IMG/VR virus record: IMGVR_UViG_3300032177_000002
Coordinates: 1-64,000 of that record
DNA length: 64,000 nt
From: a virus
Reading direction: 5' to 3' (one strand)
Shown: positions 2,972 through 15,961 of the stretch, in pieces
Layout: the number at the start of each line of letters is the position of its first letter
Position numbering within the stretch: position 1 is the first letter of the stretch
Notes under the pieces: generated by a model
What the model saw: only the letters and a program-made list of their open reading frames with translations
Told to the model about the DNA's origin: nothing
The model's database searches: none
Program-made: the position numbers and the translations under genes

Positions 2972-4106
2972 CCAAGCGATACTTGCGCTTACTGATGGAT
3001 CCATATTTAGAGGATACTCTTTTTGTACAAAAATAACCGCTATAGGAGAAGTTGTTTTTAACACAGCTATGTTTGGTTATCAAGAAATGCTTACAGACCC
3101 GTCATACTGCGGGCAAATCCTAGTTCTGACTGCTCCGCATATTGGAAATGTTGGGGTAAATGAAGAGGATCAAGAGTCCGATATAGTATGGGCAGAAGGA
3201 CTTATCGTGTCAGATATTTCGCTTACTACTTCCAACTGGAGAGCAGAAAAAGGACTACTTGATTATTTGGATGTGCTTGGTTTGCCAGTTGGATGGGGAT
3301 TTGATACGCGGGCCTTGGTCCTCCATCTTCGTCAGTATGGTGCACTGCCTGGGGTTTTGGTTTGTGGATATGCACCATTGCAGGATGAACTCACGAGTTT
3401 GCTTACGAAAGCTCACGGTACCGATGGCTGTGATCTCACCCGAAGGGTGGCGTGCAAAGAAATGCAAAGCTGGCAGCGTGGGCCGTATCGATCTGGACGA
3501 TTACCTAAGGTCAGTCAGGAGCCCAAGGCAAAACGTCCATGCATCGCGGTCATTGATTGCGGAGTTAAACGCTCTATCCTTCGCGAGCTCTTCGGTTGTC
3601 AGGCCGAAGTGAACGTGGTGCCTCCAGATACCGATGCACCTTCCATTCTCGCGCTAGGCCCAGCAGGAGTGGTGATTTCCAACGGCCCCGGTGATCCTTC
3701 TGCGGTAACCACCGTGCCCGATACCCTTCGCCACCTCCTTGGAAAAGTTCCAATATTGGGCATCTGCCTTGGTCACCAATTGCTTTCTTTAGCCCTGGGA
3801 GGAAAAACCTATAAGTTACCTTTTGGTCACCATGGTGCGAATCACCCGGTACAGGATAAAACAACAGGTTCAATTTGGATCACTTCGCAGAATCATAATT
3901 ACGCAGTAGCTCCTGATTCTCTTCCAGCAAACGTGGAAATAAGCATGATTAACCTAACGGATGGTTCCGTGGAAGGAATAATAAGTAATGAACTACAAAT
4001 AGAAGGTATTCAATTTCACCCAGAAGCAGGTCCTGGTCCACACGATGCCCTAAATGTTTTTCCGCGGTTTATTGCACGTTGTAAAAAAGGAGGCTACGGA
4101 TGCTGA
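2961..4106 (+). CDS. carA: Carbamoyl-phosphate synthase small (glutaminase) subunit
   Basis: [31 protein letters not shown] (catalytic Cys), [19 protein letters not shown] and [12 protein letters not shown] are all present. Confidence 0.97.
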
Positions 4107-7100
4107 AACCATTGTTGCACAGTAGCGAATCAAAAAATATTTGTATCCTTGGATCGGGCCCAATACGTATTGGGCAAGCATGCGAGTTCGATTATTCAGG
4201 AGTGCAAGGCGTACAAGCACTGCGTGAGGAAGGCATTAGGGTGGTACTCCTGAATTCTAATCCAGCAACTATTATGACTGACTCTGATTTGGCTGATGCT
4301 ACATACATTGAGCCGGTAACGGCAGAGATTGCTGCAATGATTTTAGAGAAAGAGCAATGCGATGCGCTACTACCGACTCTTGGTGGGCAAACGGCGCTTA
4401 ACGTGGCTCTTGAGCTATCTCAGACTGGTGTTCTTGACCGATTAAGAGTACGCCTTTTGGGTGCGAATGCAAAAACGATACAGATCGCTGAGGATAGAGG
4501 ATGTTTCCGTGACGCGATGAAAGGTGCCGGACTTCCAGTACTTTCATCTATTATTGTAAAATCTGTATTAGATGCAGAACACTCTGTAGACTTGGTTAAT
4601 TTTCCAGCAGTTTTAAGACCTTCTTATACTCTTGGAGGTACAGGTGCTTCCATTGTTTATAATAATGCAGAATACAATTCTGCGATAAAAATAGCATTGG
4701 ATTCAAGCCCAACAAGAGAAGTTTTAGTCGAGCAGTCGGTAGAAGGATGGAAAGAATTTGAATTAGAAGTAATGCGGGATGTGGCAGATACTGTAGTGGT
4801 AGTGTGCTCGATTGAGAATATAGACGCTATGGGGATTCATACTGGTGATTCTATAACAGTGGCACCTGCCTTAACGCTAACTGACAAAGAATACCAAGTA
4901 CTACGGGATGCGGCAGCAACTTGTTTACGCACAATAGGTGTTGAAACAGGTGGAGCTAACGTACAATTTGCTGTTAATCCTAAAACTGGGGAATGGGTGA
5001 TTATCGAAATGAACCCGAGAGTGTCACGTTCTTCTGCTCTTGCATCTAAAGCTACTGGTTTCCCCATCGCTCGCATTGCAGCTAAACTCGCAATAGGATA
5101 TCGACTTGACGAAATTACTAATAGTATAACTGGTACAACTCCAGCTTCTTTTGAACCTGCTCTTGATTATGTAGTAGTAAAAATGCCGCGCTTTGCTTTT
5201 GAAAAGTTCCCATCTGTTAAGAATGTACTTGGGATATCTATGAAATCAGTGGGCGAGGTTATGGCTATTGGTCGAACATTCGAAGAGGCATTACTAAAAG
5301 CTGTTCGTTCATTAGAACTCGGTAGAATTGGGCTTGCTGCTCCATCTAATATTGCTATTCTTGGTAATGATGCACTAGTTTCGAGTTTGCGTGTCCCACA
5401 TCCTGATCGTCTTTGGGCTATTGCTGAAGCTATCCGGCGTGCTGTTTGTGTCGAATCCGTTGCGTCTTTTTCTGGATGGGATCCGTGGTTTGTTCAAAGA
5501 ATTGCAGACTTGGTAATGATAGAACGAGTTATTTCTGAGCGCGGAATAAGTGATACTGATGTGTTATCTTCAGTTAAGAATTTTGGGTTTAGCGACGGAG
5601 ATTTATCCAGGTTGGCTCGTATTCCTGAACACGAAGTTCGTAAGTATAGAAAACAATGCGGTATAGTGCGTCGTTATCGTAAGGTCGATACCTGTGCGGG
5701 TGAATTTGTAGCTGTTACACCTTACTTTTACGGCAACTTCGGTACATTAGATGAGGTGCCACCAAAAAATAAAAATACGGTAATTATTCTTGGTTCAGGA
5801 CCTATCCGTATTGGTCAAGGAATAGAGTTTGATTCCTGTTGTGTACAAGCTATAACCGGGATTAAAAAAGCTGGGCGAGAAGCCGTAATGATCAATTGTA
5901 ACCCAGAAACTGTTTCTACTGACTGGGATATAGCAGACCGTTTATATTTCGAACCATTAACTCTTGAAGACGTACTCGATGTGGTTGAACGAGAATCCGC
6001 TGAAGGAGTACTTGTTCAATTCGGTGGGCAGACTCCATTAAATCTAGCACGAGGTTTAACGGATGCAGGAGTAAAAATCCTTGGTACATCACTGGAAGCT
6101 ATACATTTAGCTGAGGATCGTAAACGTTTTTCAGAAGTACTACATCAATTGGGGTTGCTAGAACCTCCTGGAGAAACAGTAGTTACCCTAGAGCAAGCTT
6201 ACAGTGCAGTACATACTTTAGGGTACCCAATACTAGTTAGACCCTCTTACGTGCTTGGTGGACGGGGAATGAAGGTTATTTATAGTGGTGTGGATCTAGA
6301 AGACTATTGGAAACGGGAAGTCTTTGAAGCGCCAAAACATCCGGTACGTATCGATCACTTCTTGGAGCGTGCAGTAGAAATCGATGTAGACGCGTTAACT
6401 GATGGGAGAACCGTAATAATTTGTGGTGTACTTGAACATATTGAAGAGGCTGGGATTCATTCAGGCGATTCGTCGTGTGTATTCCCTAGTGTTTCTCTTC
6501 CTCTAGAAATATTGGCTGAGGTACGCCGTATTACTCGTTTATTGGCACGAAAGCTAGTGGTAGTAGGACTTTTTAATATGCAACTTGCTGTTCGTGATGG
6601 TACGGTTTATGTTCTAGAAGTCAACCCTCGTGCCTCACGTACCATCCCATTTATTTCAAAAGTGACTGGTGTACCGTGGGCTGAGTTAGCTGCCCAGGTA
6701 TGCTGTGGAGTTCCGATTGCTGATTTAGGTATTTCGGATGGTGTTCCTATGGGTGTTGCAGTCAAAATGCCATTCTTTCCTTTTGACCGTTTCCCTGGAG
6801 TAGACCCGTTATTGGGTCCAGAGATGCGGTCTACTGGTGAAGTAATGGGGATGTCGAAAAGTTTTGGTGAATCTTACCTGAAAGCTGCGTTAAGTGTTGG
6901 TCTACAACTGCCTAAGAAGGGAACAGTATTCCTTTCGGTAGCTAATGCTGATAAATTAAGGATTGTTTCACTGGCAGCACGTTTTGAAGAATTAGGTTTT
7001 ACTATACTAGCTACTTATGGAACGGCGGAAATATTAGCCCGTAATGGAATTCTAGTGAATTATGTTTACAAGGTTTCGGAGGGAAGGCCACATGTGGTTG

Positions 7101-7315
7101 ACTTAATGATTAATGGCAAAATCCAGTTGGTAGTCAATACGACAACAGGTTCTTCGGCTCATAAGGATGGGATTAAGATTCGTTGTGGCGCATTAGAGCA
7201 TCATATCCCTTATGTAGCCACCGTAGCTGGTGGGTTTGCTGCTGCTGAAGCGATATCGGCGTTAGTAAAAAACAAAATAACAGTAAGATCCCTGCAACAA
7301 TGGAAAAGAATCTAA
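4100..7315 (+). CDS. carB: Carbamoyl-phosphate synthase large subunit
   Basis: 1071 aa; [64 protein letters not shown]; second ATP-grasp ([16 protein letters not shown]); C-terminal MGS domain. Confidence 0.98.
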
Positions 7316-7333
7316 TTCTAAGTACAGAATTAG
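7312..7333. terminator. Weak inverted repeat at the convergence point (possible bidirectional pause/terminator)
   Basis: CTAATTCT-AAGTAC-AGAATTAG is a perfect 8-bp stem covering the carB stop and the stop of the opposite ORF; AT-rich, no clear U-tract. Confidence 0.25.
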
Positions 7334-7557
7334 TATTGGAGTTCAATAAAAATGAAAGTATATATAATTACAAGTAAAAAAAAGTAAAAGTCAAGCATGA
7401 CATTCTGAAGGAGCGGCCATGTATCGTGGTCATTGTAAGTGAGCGTGATCCACCTGCTTGGTTTCAGAACCCGAAAGCACTCCTGCATCGCCTTCCGGAA
7501 GAGAGATTCCCAATGCGACTCATCAAGACCGCGAATCGCGTTGACGTGGCGGTTCAT
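7330..7557 (-). pseudogene. Chimeric remnant ORF: first ~8 codons of a type III restriction (Res) helicase fused in frame to an internal adenine DNA methyltransferase fragment
   Basis: MNRHVNAI matches the N-terminus of a Res-like DEAD helicase family and directly follows a mod C-terminus. WESLFRKAMQECFRVLKPSRWITLTY is the MTase 'RVLKPG' region. The ORF then runs into AT-rich phage DNA. Confidence 0.6.
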
Positions 7558-7730
7558 CGTCCTACCTCCTGCTCAAAGAGGCTCTGCTGACCAGGCTTCG
7601 GTGGAGCCTTCGGAAGGTTCTCCACCTGCAGGCTGTAGTCGTCATGCCCCCACTCGCAGCGAGCGAGGACTTGCTTGGGTATCTTTTTCACTGTCAGGTG
7701 TGGATAACGATCCGGCTTGCCCCGGAATGC
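7554..7730 (-). pseudogene. 3' end of a type III-like site-specific DNA methyltransferase (Mod) gene
   Basis: AFRGKPDRYPHLTVKKIPKQVLARCEWGHDDYSLQVENLPKAPPKPGQQSLFE resembles Mod C-termini; its stop overlaps the res ATG (ATGA). Confidence 0.65.
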
Positions 7731-8079
7731 GGTGGCGAGGCTCGAGGCCATGCGAGCGAAGCAAGTCGGCTCTGTGGTGTTCCTCCACCAGCTCGCTGCA
7801 CGCCACTCGAACAACCCCAGGCAGCACAAGGCTCGCCAGGTTCCGGCGCGGCCGTACCTCAGCGAACGCGGTTCGGTCCCCATTCGACTCCGGTAGGATG
7901 CGCGCAGGTCGTACCGCGCTCCCGTTGATTCGAAGGTGCGCCGCGAGCTGGTCGGCGAGCACGTTGTGCTGCTTCGCGCGCTCCTCGGTGATGAGCGCCT
8001 CGAGCGTCTTGCGAAACATATCCTGGTTGCCATCTGCTCCAGCCTTTACGATGTCGAGCAACAGATCAGCGCGTGCCAT
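7725..8079 (-). pseudogene. 5' fragment of an IetA-like AAA ATPase (AAA + S8 protease defence/TA pair), cut just before Walker A
   Basis: RBS AAGGAGG then MARADLLLDIVKAG..LITEERAKQHNVLADQL..LVEEHHRADLLRSHGLEPRHRI; the expected LLxGPPGxGKT is absent; the frame stays open to 7642. Confidence 0.7.
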
Positions 8080-8174
8080 GTTCAGCCTCCTTCCAGGAGG
8101 GCAAACGCAGCGAACGCCCGCATGGCGGGACACGCATTCCACCCTTCGCAACTGCCCCGCTGCACGGACAGGGC

Positions 8175-8565
8175 CTATTTGTGATCTCTGAGCGCATGGC
8201 CCGTACCTCCGCAGAAGCTGCACTTGTTCACGTTCGTGACTCCGTACCCGCGCCCATCGCAGTCGGGGCAGGTCATCCCGCCAGCATATACAGGGGGCAT
8301 ACAGACCGCATCCGTCCCAAACCCCGCCCCTGGGGGGGTGGGGGCACCCGCGGCCTGGGGGGGGGGGGAAGATGGCTCAATTCCCCCCTTGACTCCCCCC
8401 TCCCTACCTGTGCCCGCGCAGGATGGGCACGTCTTCGGCTCGGCCTCGACGGTCTTCCCGTCGCCGCCGCACTCCATGCACCGGGGCGGCTTCGACTCGA
8501 CCCAGAAGCCGTTGACCCTCCCCCATTCAGCATCGCAGAAGGAACACCGGATCAACGTCGCCATG
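8175..8565 (-). pseudogene. DnaJ-type CxxCxGxG zinc-finger segment interrupted by a G/C-run insert
   Basis: CMECGGDG, CPSCAGTG, CPDCDGRG and CSFCGGTG repeats; ~8276-8400 is a low-complexity homopolymer-rich insert. Confidence 0.6.
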
Positions 8566-8783
8566 ATGTCGAGCAACTCCTCAGAGGGAACCTGGTGAAT
8601 GTCTCGATGAATCACTGGCCAAGCACGGTTTTCCCTGAGAGTGGCGCAGCAATCCGCATCAAACTCGGAAGCGACGGCGGTGATGAATCCAGCCGCTTCC
8701 AGTCCGAGGTCAAGACCACCTGCTCCGGTGTAAAGGCTGATGACCTTCGGTCCAGCTTGTTTCCGTTGTTTGCTTCTAGCCAA
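8565..8783 (-). pseudogene. 5' fragment of a C5-cytosine DNA methyltransferase (motifs I-III only), fused in frame to the Zn finger (202-aa chimeric ORF 8175-8783)
   Basis: VISLYTGAGGLDLGLEAAGF (motif I), ASEFD..CCATLRENR, IHRDI; catalytic PCQ motif IV is absent; RBS AGGAG before a TTG start. Confidence 0.75.
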
Positions 8784-8865
8784 AGGGCAGCTCCTACACT
8801 ACAGTGATTCTGCTGTCAATCCAGTAACTTGTATCATCGATTTCCTTTTTATTCTAAAAAGTTAA

Positions 8866-9819
8866 CTACCAAGGAAGGATGCGCGTATCTGACAAGATGC
8901 CATTTATCTGTTGGTTCATGTGGTCCACTTCGTTTTTAACCAGCTCCTGAAAAGATCCCCGGCTTATATCCGCAGTTATGCCATTAGGGTAAGTTACGGC
9001 TCTTGAGGAGGTTATTAGAGCACCGTAACCATCCTTATTAAAGCATGGCAGAACTTGCGTAGCAGTAACCCCTTGAGCATCGTACCCTGGTACTAAAAAT
9101 AAGGTTTTTGGCATGATGCCTCGTAATCTTTGCGTATGCTTTGGTACTTGTGCGTTAACTACCGCCCCAACAGAGGAGTAGTTCCTGGAACTTATAGAAT
9201 AATTGCTAAGTGAGTTTACTTGCATTCCAATACGTTCGAATACCATGGTATTCCCATCTTGTAATACAGCTTCTTGTATATCATTGACTGACTCACAAGA
9301 TGTTTTTACTAACACGAATATACCTTTCGCATCTCTTTTAACGTATTCCAGATACGGTGTAATACTTTTTAAGCCTAAGTATGGACTAACCGTTATTGCG
9401 TCTGCATTGAATACCGTAGTTAACTTGTCATCTATAGCTATAGATCCTAAGTGCCCTCTAGCATAAGCGCTTGCTGAATGCGGTACGTCCCCGCGTTTTA
9501 TATCTTCAATTACTATCAAGCCTTTTGCTTTTGCGTATCTTATAGTGAGTAGTAATGAAAAAATACCTTCTGTTCCGTATTGTTCATAAAATGCAATATT
9601 CGGTTTTACTGCTGGCACAAGGTTAGCTACGGTATCTATAATGCAACAATTAAACGAAATTATAGCGTCACCGATTGCCCTAGTAGTTCTACCTAAATTT
9701 GTGCTACGGAAAACTTTAGGTATCATTGAGTATTCTGGATCAAGCCCTACTACTACGTAACTTTTTTTGGCATCTATTGCGTTCAATAGGTGATCTGCGA
9801 ATGTACCTACGCTATTCAT
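8866..9819 (-). CDS. pyrF: Orotidine-5'-phosphate decarboxylase (type 2), divergent
   Basis: VVVGLDP, AVKPNIAFYE, catalytic DIKRGD, ADAITVSPYLG, IFVLVKTS, FLVPGYxAQG, SSR; RBS AAGGAG. Confidence 0.9.
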   Translation of the reverse strand: MNSVGTFADHLLNAIDAKKSYVVVGLDPEYSMIPKVFRSTNLGRTTRAIGDAIISFNCCIIDTVANLVPAVKPNIAFYEQYGTEGIFSLLLTIRYAKAKGLIVIEDIKRGDVPHSASAYARGHLGSIAIDDKLTTVFNADAITVSPYLGLKSITPYLEYVKRDAKGIFVLVKTSCESVNDIQEAVLQDGNTMVFERIGMQVNSLSNYSISSRNYSSVGAVVNAQVPKHTQRLRGIMPKTLFLVPGYDAQGVTATQVLPCFNKDGYGALITSSRAVTYPNGITADISRGSFQELVKNEVDHMNQQINGILSDTRILPW

Positions 9820-9837: not shown

Positions 9838-10803
9838 TTATTTTTCTCTAAAGTTGTTATCTACCTTAGAATTCTCCCACATAGTCTCTACCTTAGAATT
9901 CTCCCACATAGTCTCTACCTTAGAATTCTCCCACATAGTCTCTACCTTAGAAGTCCCACACATACTCACTACCTTAGAATTCTCCCTCATAACTTCTACC
10001 TTAGAGCTCCCCATCATAGCCTCTACCTTAGAATTCTCCCACATAACCTCTACCTTAGAAGTCCCACACATACTCACTACCTTAGAGTCCACCCACATAC
10101 CCTCTACCTTAGAATTCTCCAGCATAGTCTCTACCTCAGAATTCCCCAGCATAGTCTCTACCTTAGAAGTCCCACGCATACTCACTATCTTAGAGTTCCC
10201 CATCATAGCCTCTACCTTAGAATTCTCCCACATAACCTCTACCTTAGAATTATCCCACATAACTCCTACCTTAGAATCTCTTTCTATAGCCCATATTTTA
10301 GAGTTCTCCCACATAACCCCTACCTTAGAACTCCCCCGCATAGTTTCTATCTCGGAATTCCCCTTCATAACCCCTACCTTAGAACTCCCCCGCATAGCTT
10401 CTACCTTAGAATTCCCCGTCATGTATTGAATTCTACAATTATTGACATCCTTAACTTCAGCTCCATCAAGAAGGATATAACATCCATCTTGAAGGGTTTC
10501 TCGTTTGTCCTGAACAAACATACCAGAAATGATTGTCCATAACTTATTCTTTATAATTTCCACACTAAGCCACTCTGGGATATTCGATTTATCAATACTT
10601 AAATTCCAATTATGGATATCGTTTAAATTTTTGGTAGGATCTATAGGGATAAATTCGACCCTACAAGATTTTTCTAAATAGAATCCTTTTTCATCGTCTA
10701 CTAAATTATGCTTTTTTATGAGTTCCTCATGTCGATCAGGATATCCGGGATCCCAAATAATGTCTAAATTTTTTAACACAATGGTACTCAGAAAGTTACA
10801 CAT
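9838..10803 (-). CDS. Tandem 9-aa-repeat (beta-solenoid-like) protein
   Basis: Unique ~130-aa N-terminus then ~20 copies of SKV(E/G/V)xMxx(N/S/T/D); RBS AAGGAG. Confidence 0.85.
   Translation of the reverse strand: MCNFLSTIVLKNLDIIWDPGYPDRHEELIKKHNLVDDEKGFYLEKSCRVEFIPIDPTKNLNDIHNWNLSIDKSNIPEWLSVEIIKNKLWTIISGMFVQDKRETLQDGCYILLDGAEVKDVNNCRIQYMTGNSKVEAMRGSSKVGVMKGNSEIETMRGSSKVGVMWENSKIWAIERDSKVGVMWDNSKVEVMWENSKVEAMMGNSKIVSMRGTSKVETMLGNSEVETMLENSKVEGMWVDSKVVSMCGTSKVEVMWENSKVEAMMGSSKVEVMRENSKVVSMCGTSKVETMWENSKVETMWENSKVETMWENSKVDNNFREK
9859..10410. repeat. 27-bp coding tandem repeat (~20 copies)
   Basis: Consensus tctaccttagaattctcccacatagtc on the + strand; the last three protein units (SKVETMWEN) are identical. 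Confidence 0.95.
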
Positions 10804-13774: not shown

Positions 13775-15961
13775 TTAACTAATCTTGCGCCCTTTTTTTA
13801 TGATTGGTTCATGTTTTGTAGGAACAACAGCTTCCCCGTGAAATTTTTGGTACTGCAACTTTTTTATAGCACTAACTAGTAACTCTGTGGATCCTGCTCG
13901 AACAGGGTCATGCATACCTAGTACATGTGCTATCATGACTAATACCGGACGCTTCATTGCGTTTAATTGTTTATCAGAGTAAGGTAGTTCAGACCTAATT
14001 TGAGCGTGCTTCTCTGCTGTATCCCTTTCTTTTAAAGACATATTTTTTTGTCCTTGTTTAGCGGTGGTTTTCGGTTCTGCAATTTCTTCCTCCTCTTCCT
14101 CTTCCTCTTCCTCTTCCTCTTCTGTTTCCGGCTCCGCTTCCTCTTCCTCTTCTGTTTCCGGCTCCGCTTCCTCTTCCTCTTCTGTTTCCGGCTCCGCTTC
14201 CTCTTCCTCTTCCTCTTCCTCTTCCTCTTCCTCTTCCTCTTCCGCTTCCTCTTCCTCTTCTGTTTCCGGCTCCGCTTCCTCTTCCTCTTCTGTTTCCGGC
14301 TCCGCTTCCTCTTCCTCTTCTTCTACGTCTACTTTTATTTCTTCCTCCTCGTGATCTTCTTGAATTGGCTTGTATTTCGATGCGCAGTACGGACACAATG
14401 CAAGTTTGTCTATAATGTCACGAAAACATGCTCCGCAGCAGTACGAACCATACGTCTTGTTTTTTACCAATTCTCGTTTTATTAACCCTTCTAGTTTCTT
14501 TGTGTCCGATTTTGGTTGGACCGGGATTCCTAAGCTTTTACAGCCTATCTTTAACGTTTCTAAAGTCACTGCAATTTTCTCTGCCATTACTGGCTCCTTT
14601 GTTTGTTTGGCTACACGTACTTTGTAGCGCTTTTTTATATTACGCAATTTACGATACAAGGCCGGTACATTCCGGTCCCACAGGTAAAATAATCTGCTTT
14701 CTTTTCCTTCAAAAGGTCTAGATAATCTCCCACGCATCTGCCGAAATCTGTATAATTTCGTGTCTGCAGAAGCACATGTCATAACTCCTCTATCTAAAAT
14801 AGGAATATTTATGGCTTTCTCTGCTACGGATGTCCCAATAGCTACTTGGATCCCGCCGTTGTTTAACCCATTCTCAGCAGTATCGCATTCAGCTTTATTC
14901 TTTTTGCTTCCTATAAGTAGACCTACAGATACCCCCATACGTCTTAAATCTTTGGCTAATATATAGCAGTGTTTTATCCTATCACTCCATACTAAAATCT
15001 TATGTCCTTGCTTTGCTTCTCTAGCTACTAAATTTAGGGTAAGCTCATGCCTTTTCTTGTCTTCTATGAGTTCGTCTATCAACCCACACCAGTTCAAATC
15101 ATAACTACTGTATCTGTGTGATTTGAATGCAGTAGGGATCGCAACAATATCTACTTCGCACTGACCAATAGATCTTGCTAGCTTAAAACTTGTTGGTCCA
15201 AATGTGTCGTATAAAAGGAACTCCCTTCCGTCACGTCTACGCTCATCATCACTTGCCCCAATCCTAATAGCTGCAGGCAACGCATTTACAGTTTCCCTAA
15301 GTGTTCTGGCAGCGAAAAGCGAAACTTCGTCACAGATTACGCACCCAAATAGCATTCTTAATTCATCTAACCGGTTCCTAACCGATTGAACCATGCCTAC
15401 CGTGATCGGTTTCAACGATACTTTCGCAAAAGCGCCCCCAATGCCTCCTGCGGGCTCACCAGTCCATTTTAGAATTCTGTCTAGCCAAACCATTTGGTGT
15501 CGTTCTTGGCTCACCAAAATTAAAGTAGGCTGTTTAAAATGAAATGCTACTGCTAATAACATTTCTGTTTTACCACTAGATGTAGGTGCCCTTCCTACAG
15601 TCTGCTGCCGTTTAATCATGGTGGCTACCGGGACTTTCTGGTAATCCCTAAGTATTGCTGAATAAGCCATTTTTATTCTCGGTAACCAAAGTCTATTGTC
15701 GTTTATTTGATATGATACATCATTCTTTTTTAGTATAGTTACCACCTTGCTTATGCAACCACGCCACATAGATAATATGGCTGTACTCTCCGTATACGTA
15801 GTTATATGTTTGGTTAACCCTACTGTACTAAGCCCGTGCTTTTTATTGTATGTATACATAGGGTCTTTATAAGTACATGCGTTTCTTAGGTCTTCTATCG
15901 TCTGCTTAGGCAACTCATCTTTTATTAGGTTTACTGTACTGTCTATGTTTATGAGCGCCAT
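13775..15961 (-). CDS. Superfamily 2 (DExx) helicase with C-terminal Zn-finger and poly-Glu extension
   Basis: LRDYQ, APTSSGKT, ICDEVS, INIPILD, QMRGRLSR; then CCGAC..CPYC and a ~90-aa Glu tract. Confidence 0.85.
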   Translation of the reverse strand: MALINIDSTVNLIKDELPKQTIEDLRNACTYKDPMYTYNKKHGLSTVGLTKHITTYTESTAILSMWRGCISKVVTILKKNDVSYQINDNRLWLPRIKMAYSAILRDYQKVPVATMIKRQQTVGRAPTSSGKTEMLLAVAFHFKQPTLILVSQERHQMVWLDRILKWTGEPAGGIGGAFAKVSLKPITVGMVQSVRNRLDELRMLFGCVICDEVSLFAARTLRETVNALPAAIRIGASDDERRRDGREFLLYDTFGPTSFKLARSIGQCEVDIVAIPTAFKSHRYSSYDLNWCGLIDELIEDKKRHELTLNLVAREAKQGHKILVWSDRIKHCYILAKDLRRMGVSVGLLIGSKKNKAECDTAENGLNNGGIQVAIGTSVAEKAINIPILDRGVMTCASADTKLYRFRQMRGRLSRPFEGKESRLFYLWDRNVPALYRKLRNIKKRYKVRVAKQTKEPVMAEKIAVTLETLKIGCKSLGIPVQPKSDTKKLEGLIKRELVKNKTYGSYCCGACFRDIIDKLALCPYCASKYKPIQEDHEEEEIKVDVEEEEEEAEPETEEEEEAEPETEEEEEAEEEEEEEEEEEEEEEAEPETEEEEEAEPETEEEEEAEPETEEEEEEEEEEEEEIAEPKTTAKQGQKNMSLKERDTAEKHAQIRSELPYSDKQLNAMKRPVLVMIAHVLGMHDPVRAGSTELLVSAIKKLQYQKFHGEAVVPTKHEPIIKKGRKIS
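14078..14350. repeat. 30-bp (EEEEEAEPET) repeats embedded in (GAG GAA)n microsatellite
   Basis: tctgtttccggctccgcttcctcttcctct occurs 5 times, interspersed with tcctct runs. Confidence 0.95.

Follow-up and report, generated by a model that had tools for sequence, protein, structure and literature searches.

In the Hendrix-type model, phage mosaicism and the acquisition of morons proceed through illegitimate recombination at gene boundaries. Among defence systems, one report assigns to IetA the role of antitoxin to the protease toxin IetS; no ietA mutant could be made, which its authors take to mean that active IetA is the antitoxin (PMC13069673). Phages are known to carry orphan antitoxin-like genes directed against DarTG1 (PMC11825919).

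The locus described here is an insert of ~1.4 kb, spanning positions 7393 to ~8835 of the window (the whole 64,000-nt stretch that was analyzed), in the 103-kb genome of a contractile-tailed sediment phage. The insert occupies the gap between the convergent genes carB and pyrF and reads on the minus strand as five truncated foreign genes. Restriction-modification (R-M) or defence genes are the source of four pieces; the fifth derives from a gene that GC-rich temperate phages carry. We consider it moderately probable that a single mobile region rich in methylase and defence genes was the donor, that its DNA was captured recently and joined at microhomologies, and that the insert is now junk, a recombination scar.

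Setting, composition and presence in sediment samples

The features flanking the insert are as follows.
4100..7315, plus strand: carB, carbamoyl-phosphate synthase large subunit, the left flank, converging on the insert (Pfam CPSase_L_D2, D1, D3 and MGS)
7302..7333, minus strand: weak AT-rich hairpin (9-bp stem, 7312-7333) and U-rich run (7302-7311)
8866..9819, minus strand: pyrF, OMP decarboxylase, the right flank, with the insert directly downstream in the same orientation (Pfam OMPdecase, E 3e-20)

With a mean GC content of 61.7% and a peak of 69.7%, the insert is the top compositional outlier across the phage genome, which has 40.5% GC overall and a standard deviation of 0.053 in 300-nt windows. 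GC content steps down at 8830-8840, the edge of the insert toward pyrF. The counts quoted in the preliminary description were exact (40/60 for 7861-7920 and 17/60 for 1261-1320), and its proposal of a foreign and recent insert is borne out by the GC3 of the fragments, 0.52-0.74 compared with 0.29 in carB and 0.33 in pyrF. Furthermore, all five pieces lie on one strand, antisense to carB and sense to pyrF, each is truncated and no catalytic core is left, in agreement with the earlier picture of co-oriented fragments without their effector parts.

The hairpin and U-run overlap the carB stop codon and constitute the first terminator-like structure downstream of pyrF and the insert on the minus strand; folding revealed no similar combination between the pyrF stop and the insert. 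The hairpin was the sole structure kept in the centroid fold (z -1.9) and is a putative transcription terminator, and the insert is probably transcribed by read-through from pyrF. A promoter and terminator scan remained at chance level, and an Rfam search returned a single miRNA match, far below threshold, and no structured element. In RNA run X12, 6% of the sampled words were present.

Logan contigs, which are independent per-run assemblies, reproduced the junctions at 100% identity in three to four sediment runs. In run X1 a single contig of 8,039 nt, evenly covered at a depth of 11.4, crosses junctions J5, J4, J3 and J2, and in run X2 a contig covering 7693-8184 crosses J3 and J2. Run X3 contributed contigs 7485-7639, 7655-7812 and 7808-8174 over J4, J3 and J2, as well as contig 8557-8883, which covers J0 (the outer B1 border) and the 31-mers over J1. 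Gaps in the contig cover of a single run, e.g. X1 at 8599-9808, carry no weight. Since independent contigs repeat the junctions at full identity, the insert is not an assembly chimera, the outcome that the preliminary description had linked to a lack of junction-spanning data. That an assembly, amplification or binning chimera, in no phage particle, produced the pattern is very improbable: the insert contrasts extremely with the phage in GC, its pieces have plentiful GC-rich relatives in the same samples and the best-matching run may be the source sample, but the X1, X2 and X3 assemblies agree, one of them as a single even-depth contig, phage DNA lies on either side, and, judged by eye, the AT-rich borders and the insert seem too dissimilar for long words to mislead a de Bruijn assembler. 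No insert-free carB-pyrF allele was seen in four runs, suggesting that the insert is at least tolerated.

Five truncated genes and their junctions

The blocks of the insert and the reading frames formed across them are listed below in minus-strand order.
8575..8835, minus strand: B1, 5' end of a C5 cytosine methyltransferase gene, outer border approximate at 8800-8835 (PF00145 positions 2-59/324)
8175..8783, minus strand: ORF-A, 202-aa in-frame chimera of the C5-methyltransferase N-terminus and the zinc-finger protein (ORF list, homologues)
8143..8574, minus strand: B2, codons 12-143 of a 143-aa CXXCXGXG zinc-finger gene and 32 nt of 3' flank (88% amino acid identity to P0001)
7729..8147, minus strand: B3, 5' part of an IetA gene (PADLOC PDLC04232 positions 1-119/330, E 1e-33)
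7642..8079, minus strand: ORF-B, 145-aa frame of IetA residues 1-118 and a 27-aa out-of-frame tail through B4 (ORF list, sequence)
7554..7733, minus strand: B4, last 59 codons and stop of a type III-like (PF01555) mod methyltransferase gene (PADLOC MTase_III positions 518-559/575)
7546..7557, minus strand: MNRH, the ATGA-overlapping start and four codons of the donor gene after mod (read from the sequence)
7393..7545, minus strand: B5, internal piece (residues ~446-497) of a two-domain ~819-aa N6 DNA methyltransferase gene (P0323 homology)
7330..7557, minus strand: ORF-C, 75-aa frame of MNRH, the N6-methyltransferase piece and a hydrophobic tail from AT-rich phage DNA (ORF list)

Block B1 contains the first ~64 codons of its gene, with an AGGAG ribosome-binding site (RBS; N7 spacing) and a TTG start at 8783, and also matches PADLOC DruM/MTase_II. 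Identity to residues 5-64 of a 417-aa relative (P0211) is 78%, and the block stops 18 residues short of the PCQ motif, located at residue 82 of that relative. Motif I, the FxGxG AdoMet loop, is present (LYTGAGGLDLG); motif IV with the catalytic PCQ cysteine and the target-recognition domain are absent. The profile and the alignment to P0211 thus confirm the earlier reading of a C5-methyltransferase 5' end that stops before PCQ.

In ORF-A, B1 passes into B2 at Leu71, a residue common to both parents. The B2 protein is 88% identical to the 143-aa P0001 over residues 12-143, and the DNA is 82% and 88% identical to viral contigs L002 and L003, respectively. Four CXXCXGXG repeats (CMECGGDG, CPSCAGTG, CPDCDGRG and CSFCGGTG) support the DnaJ-type zinc finger noted previously; the PF00684 score of 26.0 bits is under the gathering cut-off of 32.7, no J-domain accompanies the finger, and the protein is not DnaJ proper. 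ORF-A possesses an RBS and an intact four-motif zinc domain, as a functional reading would predict, a counterpoint to reading the insert as junk. Members of this family are stand-alone phage proteins of ~143 aa, and in L003 the gene sits between an N6-methyltransferase gene and an integrase gene. From this context, the proposed all-bacterial string of defence genes stands for four pieces and fails for the zinc finger, which comes from GC-rich temperate phages. A conserved core occupies the last 49 nt of B2 (~8144-8192; codons 138-143 and 3' flank); searched as a pattern, it occurred only in viral contigs L002 and L003 and in 0/5 metagenome-assembled genomes (MAGs). The bin containing the core has 50-118x depth across four runs, and its contigs exit the window at 8145 and 8200. 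In 301 genomes of the phylum of the Binatia MAG, DnaJ genes were the only matches to the zinc-finger protein.

Block B3 comprises 68 nt of native upstream DNA with an RBS, an ATG at 8079 and codons 1-118 of an IetA gene. It is 82-85% identical in DNA to loci L042, L043 and L044 over 7729-8147 and 87-88% identical in protein to their IetA, and retains 15/15 invariant N-terminal residues of the family. Homology ends at residue 118, where the Pfam AAA domain begins in the full-length relative L008; the AAA+ core with the Walker A and B motifs is absent, and what follows is mod DNA in a different frame, leaving 118 of ~331 residues. Both the PADLOC IetA profile and the domain start in L008 agree with the earlier placement of the end just before Walker A. 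A gene of 780-920 aa lies downstream in ~25 of 36 complete loci of IetA relatives, and the one scanned (L011) encodes a Peptidase_S8, while neither the ORF list nor a profile scan revealed an IetS S8 protease gene in the window. Viral scans with the IetA and C5-methyltransferase fragments found no relatives. A complex prediction for the IetA fragment with the IetS of L044 scored 0.19, relative to a mark of 0.32, a value that weighs neither for nor against an interaction.

More than 7,900 proteins of 540-575 aa share the mod tail of B4, at 81-93% identity over the tail; 59 of ~543 residues remain and the catalytic and AdoMet-binding domain is absent. A Roseomonas relative has a DEAD/DEAH helicase gene after mod and overlapping it, and the gene behind the MNRH codons is presumably res. 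Nothing of a res helicase-nuclease gene is present beyond the ATGA-coupled start and these four presumed codons, compared with eight codons in the preliminary description. Among PLSDB plasmids only a 70-nt match was obtained, between the mod tail and Roseomonas plasmids. Block B5 resembles the 819-aa P0323, which contains PF01555: identity was 88% over query residues 5-53 by phmmer and 82% over 56 aa by BLASTP, within residues 446-501, and homology begins only at query residue 5, after MNRH. Comparison of both ruled out B5 as part of the B4 mod gene. The MTase_III profile and P0323 thereby upheld the identities given earlier to the mod tail (~57 codons) and the internal methyltransferase piece.

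The blocks are joined directly, with no filler and with short or no microhomology, a signature of illegitimate, microhomology-mediated recombination. At J1 (B1/B2) the Leu codon CTC common to both parents lies within a CTCGACATC stretch, which is expected also in the zinc-finger parent. At J2 (B2/B3) homology to L002 runs from 8143 and homology to L043 runs to 8147, an overlap of at most 5 nt, and the end of the 3' flank of the zinc-finger gene is joined to the start of the IetA leader. At J3 (B3/B4) ACCGC (7729-7733) is common to the IetA and mod readings, and the joint is out of frame. Breakpoints disregard protein architecture; the one in IetA lies within the AAA+ module, just ahead of the Walker-A strand. 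Three boundaries of the preliminary description had to be moved: C5-methyltransferase/zinc finger from 8565 to 8574/8575, zinc finger/IetA from 8170-8175 to 8143-8147, and the internal methyltransferase piece from 7532/7533 to ~7545/7546. Translation-initiation regions are found in three blocks and in-frame fusions number two, which are counterpoints to a junk reading.

No repeat family recurs at the junctions. An integron cassette array or other site-specific cassette system was rejected, with no repeated sites between the pieces and no integrase nearby, as was a transposon or IS insertion, with no terminal inverted repeats, target-site duplication or transposase frame, and with flank repeats that are only AT-rich, 10-13 nt long and at chance level.

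Origin of the insert

The derivation of four pieces from methylase or defence genes is unlikely for random genomic DNA and suggests one enriched donor region. A single donor region behind all blocks is something we infer, because no donor with two adjacent blocks was found: a second block was present in 0/44 IetA loci (inspected up to 10 kb on each side, contig permitting), 0/5 whole MAGs and 0/3 viral records, so the colinear matches in one island that had been predicted did not appear. The best relatives of the blocks, at 78-93% identity, are spread over several phyla and therefore identify no host. The closest IetA genes (87-88% amino acid identity) belong alike to Binatia, Planctomycetota and delta-proteobacterial MAGs, and with donors all 20-28 GC points above the phage, the earlier expectation that the insert would identify the host was not sustained. 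Searches of carAB DNA gave no informative matches to a host, the window contains no tRNA genes, and no close phage relatives were found in IMG/VR (pyrF, carB and primase-helicase queries) or INPHARED (DNA). GC3 is unequal among the blocks (0.52 in B1 and 0.74 in B3), a point against a single donor region.

According to the capture reading, GC-rich foreign DNA would have entered the gap between carB and pyrF recently and been joined via illegitimate, microhomology-mediated recombination. Most likely the donor would be a single accessory region, rich in methylase and defence genes, on a GC-rich mobile element; a prophage end with adjoining DNA is the best candidate, because one block is a temperate-phage gene that in L003 lies beside N6-methylase and integrase genes. 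The reduction of this region may have taken a series of deletions, or one replicative repair event with several forward template jumps; the serial deletions proposed earlier are not distinguishable from a one-step multi-jump event. With PCQ, the AAA+ core, the mod body, IetS and res gone, no enzyme can be made, so the insert most likely has little or no fitness effect and is junk that has been neither purged nor ameliorated so far.

Selection for the zinc-finger gene alone, with the C5-methyltransferase piece supplying RBS, start and N-terminus and B3-B5 hitch-hiking as junk, is unlikely. B2 is the only nearly whole gene of the insert (132/143 codons, all four motifs), it is fused in frame behind the AGGAG-N7-TTG start, and its family is widespread, with several chimeric forms (P0005, P0013, P0019, P0020 and P0032). 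However, the truncation removes the first CXXC of the N-terminal Cys4 site, and an in-frame join arises by chance one time in three. A further alternative is a one-step origin by reverse transcription, in which a host enzyme that switched templates would have reverse-transcribed several mRNAs, the resulting chimeric cDNA then being caught at a break in the phage genome. The sense orientation of every piece, the start of B1 near a gene 5' end, and the joining at J2 of a 3' flank end, past a small hairpin, to a leader start would fit end-to-end template jumps, but a PF00078 search of the whole genome found no reverse transcriptase gene, the J2 hairpin is not significant (z +1.07), and deletions in a co-oriented gene string are a simpler account of the same pattern. 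We regard this origin as highly improbable.

A counter-defence device is improbable, somewhat more so than selection for the zinc finger. It could act through sense peptides from pyrF read-through, antisense RNA from carB read-through, or arms that recombine with a host island. In peptide form, the IetA N-terminal fragment would titrate IetS or IetA, as an orphan antitoxin or dominant-negative decoy; in RNA form, one transcript would be antisense to the RBS and start regions of C5-methyltransferase, IetA and res. In its favour, the five pieces are all antisense to carB and sense to pyrF, where co-orientation by itself has a chance of 1 in 16, and three keep RBS and start regions. Every invariant N-terminal residue is retained in the IetA fragment, but recency by itself would predict this. 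The antitoxin role described for IetA (PMC13069673) and the orphan antitoxin-like genes that phages carry against DarTG1 (PMC11825919) also favour it; yet the fragment lacks the ATPase, and because active IetA is taken as the antitoxin (PMC13069673), a dead fragment might trigger the system and not block it. Furthermore, the IetA breakpoint lies within the AAA+ module instead of between domains, it is not evident what the phage would gain by silencing or mimicking methyltransferases, the class to which three of the five pieces belong, and no known target has at least 90% DNA identity. A cassette that is actually kept and expressed against defence, by RNA antisense to IetA, res and methylase starts or by an ATPase-less IetA peptide disturbing IetA-IetS, is a little less probable still. 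The capture reading, with a junk product, is retained.

Comparison with known systems

As a clean, well-documented case in which DNA moved very recently from GC-rich mobile elements to a phage of 40% GC, with breakpoints mapped within a few bases, the insert is useful for studying how phages gain and lose foreign DNA and which cells this one enters. It is also a warning against host assignment from such patches, as one block has its closest relatives in three phyla. To our knowledge, there is no description of fragment-based interference with IetAS or type III-like systems, and for this reason fragments acting against such systems, if true, would be of far greater importance.

Eroded defence islands, or R-M graveyards, are similar in their deletion-left strings of truncated methylase, nuclease and ATPase genes, including IetAS and type III-like R-M. 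This remnant differs from them in residing in a virulent-looking phage and not in a bacterial chromosome, in including a temperate-phage gene and in having no intact defence gene. Like phages with orphan antitoxin-like genes against DarTG1 or other defence-derived inhibitors, this phage has the "protective" half of a toxin-antitoxin-type defence system; those inhibitors are described as enzymes (PMC11825919), whereas the IetA of the insert is 118 of ~331 residues with no ATPase. A specialised-transduction-like capture would account for J2, where the end of a conserved temperate-phage block is joined to the leader of a bacterial-type gene, and for the zinc-finger gene beside the integrase in L003, where attP is expected; in contrast to such a capture, the insert yielded neither an att site nor an integrase or lysogen junction, and L002 DNA past the conserved core still has a phage-like appearance. 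A classical moron consists of an entire gene with a promoter and a terminator of its own, whereas here five genes are truncated and none is intact, and the GC gap of ~22 points is unusually large. Nevertheless, as in morons, DNA of deviant composition lies between two transcription units with sharp borders and with short or no homology at the joints, and would be carried on neighbouring transcription.

The phage, the insert and its physical reality

The IMG/VR record of the phage is complete (103,083 bp, with exact 64-bp direct terminal repeats), and the window is its first 64 kb. The phage is contractile-tailed, with tail sheath, baseplate wedge, DnaB-primase, and helicase genes, and its auxiliary genes are carA, carB, and pyrF. 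A GC-rich insert sits between the two stop codons of the convergent carB and pyrF. This mosaic of foreign gene fragments, designated blocks B1 to B5, is real and recent, and it has been mapped precisely.

Features of the insert and its neighbours
4100-7315, plus: carB, left neighbour
7393-7545, minus: B5, residues ~446-497 of an 819-aa two-domain N6-methyltransferase
7546-7557, minus: four codons of the gene after mod, with a start that overlaps the mod stop as ATGA
7554-7733, minus: B4, final 59 codons of a type III-like mod gene, with its stop
7729-8147, minus: B3, IetA, with 68 nt of native leader including a ribosome-binding site, ATG at 8079, and codons 1-118
8143-8574, minus: B2, codons 12-143 of a 143-aa zinc-finger protein and 32 nt past the stop
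~8575-8835, minus: B1, 5' end of a C5-methyltransferase
8866-9819, minus: pyrF, right neighbour
ORF-A, 202 aa, minus: in-frame chimera of B1 and B2
ORF-B, 145 aa, minus: IetA residues 1-118, then an out-of-frame tail
ORF-C, 75 aa, minus: MNRH, B5, and a tail translated from AT-rich phage DNA

The phage genome has a GC content of 40.5% (standard deviation 0.053 in 300-nt windows), and the insert (7395-8800; mean 61.7%, peak 69.7%) is the strongest GC outlier of the whole genome. Two GC spot counts in the preliminary description proved exact on recount. GC3 was 0.52-0.74 in the fragment frames versus 0.29-0.33 in carB and pyrF; the insert DNA is therefore foreign and has not yet begun to drift toward phage composition.

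Logan contigs, which are per-run assemblies independent of IMG, were compared with the window and were identical to it (100%). All runs are 2019 sediment metagenomes and so may share one campaign; run X1 may be the source sample. Among the Logan contigs of these runs, none skipped the insert.

Logan contigs crossing joints (J1 to J4, between successive blocks; J5, carB-side border)
X1: one 8,039-nt contig (depth 11.4), from far inside carB to 8174; J5, J4, J3, J2
X2: 7693-8184; J3, J2
X3: 7485-7639, 7655-7812, and 7808-8174; J4, J3, J2
X3: 8557-8883; outer joint to pyrF-side phage DNA, with 31-mers over J1

Other regions of the phage genome were also unusual. A 600-bp stretch of carA (3251-3850) reaches 56% GC, and its GC3 of 0.46 exceeds the 0.38 of the complete gene; it may have ameliorated less than the rest, or have been converted recently. 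A 321-aa ORF (9838-10803, minus strand) is made up for the most part of ~8-residue tandem repeats resembling MWENSKVE, and its strand skew is extreme (GC skew about -0.6); a paralogue of its N-terminus lies at genome 74416-75171, beside CLec/FGE-type genes with GC-rich C-terminal regions. Paralogous genes at genome 73383-74102 and 75077-75796 both end in a GC-rich CRGGSW...GFRLARNSG, a pattern typical of DGR targets. Within a 728-aa helicase ORF (13775-15961), the segment 13950-14400 has an AT skew to -0.8, a GC skew of -0.55, and a GC of 0.51.

Joints and coding content

All joints of the insert are direct. At three of them the sequences permit a closer reading: J1 falls within a Leu codon common to both parents, inside the stretch CTCGACATC; at J2 the parental homologies overlap by at most 5 nt (8143-8147), and at J3 ACCGC (7729-7733) is common to both parents. 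The cuts disregard protein structure: the N-terminal Cys4 site of the zinc-finger protein is missing its first CXXC, IetA breaks off just ahead of the Walker-A strand (the Pfam AAA domain starts at residue 118 in a full-length relative), and the reading frame is not kept across J3. The analysis found neither a repeat family common to the joints nor inverted repeats or target duplications bounding the insert; an RNA family and an unusual fold were likewise lacking. Just outside both borders, a 13-nt AT-rich inverted repeat (7345-7357 and 8841-8853, 12/13 complementary), whose arms would have been ~40 nt apart before insertion, may be a chance product of AT-rich DNA.

B1 retains an initiation region (AGGAG spaced seven bases from a TTG start at 8783) and motif I. 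Over ORF-A residues 12-71, identity to residues 5-64 of P0211, a 417-aa homologue with PCQ at 82, is 78%, and the B2 protein is 88% identical to its homologue P0001. The preliminary description had identified the pieces correctly but shifted three junctions slightly, and its eight codons of res are four codons, uninformative as to gene.

No catalytic core survives in the insert. ORF-A and ORF-B have good, donor-inherited ribosome-binding sites. The sole terminator-like hairpin on the minus strand lies 3' of the insert (7312-7333, with a U-run), making co-transcription with pyrF plausible.

Sources of the pieces

The B2 family comprises ~143-aa proteins in viral contigs of 65% GC. In one (L003) the zinc-finger gene is flanked by N6-methylase and integrase genes; in another (L002) the preceding genes, judged from their translations, are putatively RecT-like and 5'-3' exonuclease-like. 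B2 is thus temperate-phage DNA rather than a piece of a bacterial defence gene. In B2, the 49 nt at the 3' end (final six zinc-finger codons, stop, and ~30 nt beyond; window region 8144-8200, minus strand) are identical to L002 8410-8458, with a counterpart at L003 1131-1178. The bin with this core reached 50-118x in four sediment runs versus 2-11x for the phage, and contigs depart from the window, along several different paths, at 8145 and 8200; the core has the look of a module boundary or recombination site that recurs in an abundant family of GC-rich phages. Other chimeric forms of the zinc-finger family occur in metagenomes (P0032, P0013, P0019, P0020, P0005, and P0023). P0032 joins an SMC/AAA_23-type ATPase N-terminus with Walker A to the same zinc-finger C-terminus, with the final 22 residues matching those encoded in the window exactly, and the gene seems prone to fusions.

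The nearest relatives of B3 are IetA genes of Binatia, Planctomycetota, and delta-proteobacterial MAGs (87-88% amino acid, 82-85% nucleotide identity). A ~860-aa gene follows IetA in each of the three nearest MAG loci, and the equivalent gene of locus L011 has an S8 peptidase domain. In L011 (4416-5492; MAG contig WBZM01000632.1) IetA itself is split into frames of 207 and 125 aa upstream of the intact 860-aa S8 protease gene, with an integrase-family gene on the opposite strand, ~1.6 kb upstream. B4 is a member of a very large methylase family (>7,900 matches) whose conservation is extreme. Many ~415-aa C5-methylases match B1, at identities no higher than ~80%; those few that carry a name come from Planctomycetota and Thermoanaerobaculia MAGs.

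No second block turned up near IetA in 44 loci (up to 10 kb each side where the contig allows), in five whole MAGs, or in three viral records. The colinear hits expected of a shrunken bacterial defence island did not appear, a weak test because the nearest available donor is no closer than ~85% nucleotide identity. Nor does the patch name the host, as had been proposed, since the closest relatives of a single block are spread over three phyla.

Origin of the insert

On balance, the insert is probably a recombination scar. Four of the five fragments are of methylase or defence-gene origin, and the fifth is a phage gene with a methylase neighbour. A single donor region rich in such genes, plausibly a prophage end plus adjoining DNA, best accounts for this enrichment and for the strict colinearity and co-orientation. 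Deletions would have shortened the region, or else several forward template jumps within one repair event. For the transfer, the 40% GC phage and the 62-70% GC DNA had to be present in the same cell, an encounter interesting in itself.

The insert might instead be a captured zinc-finger moron, which we consider unlikely, or, with slightly lower probability, the counter-defence cassette raised in the preliminary description. IetA is described as an ATPase that acts as antitoxin to the protease toxin IetS, in a paper that states the anti-phage mechanism to be unknown (PMC13069673). Its authors could not build an ietA mutant and read this as a sign that active IetA is the antitoxin (PMC13069673), so an ATPase-less fragment is not an obvious inhibitor; phages do carry orphan antitoxin-like genes against another system (PMC11825919), so the idea is not absurd. 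Interest in the insert is moderate to low unless a function is demonstrated. The sense orientation of all pieces and the joining of a 3' flank to a leader at J2 would suit cDNA capture, but the complete genome (G000) has no reverse transcriptase (PF00078), and such an origin is highly improbable. Independent contigs crossing the joints at full identity, with none skipping the insert, make an assembly or amplification chimera very unlikely, and an artefact retains hardly any weight. As a recombination scar, the insert belongs to a known class, the illegitimate-recombination mosaics in phage genomes.
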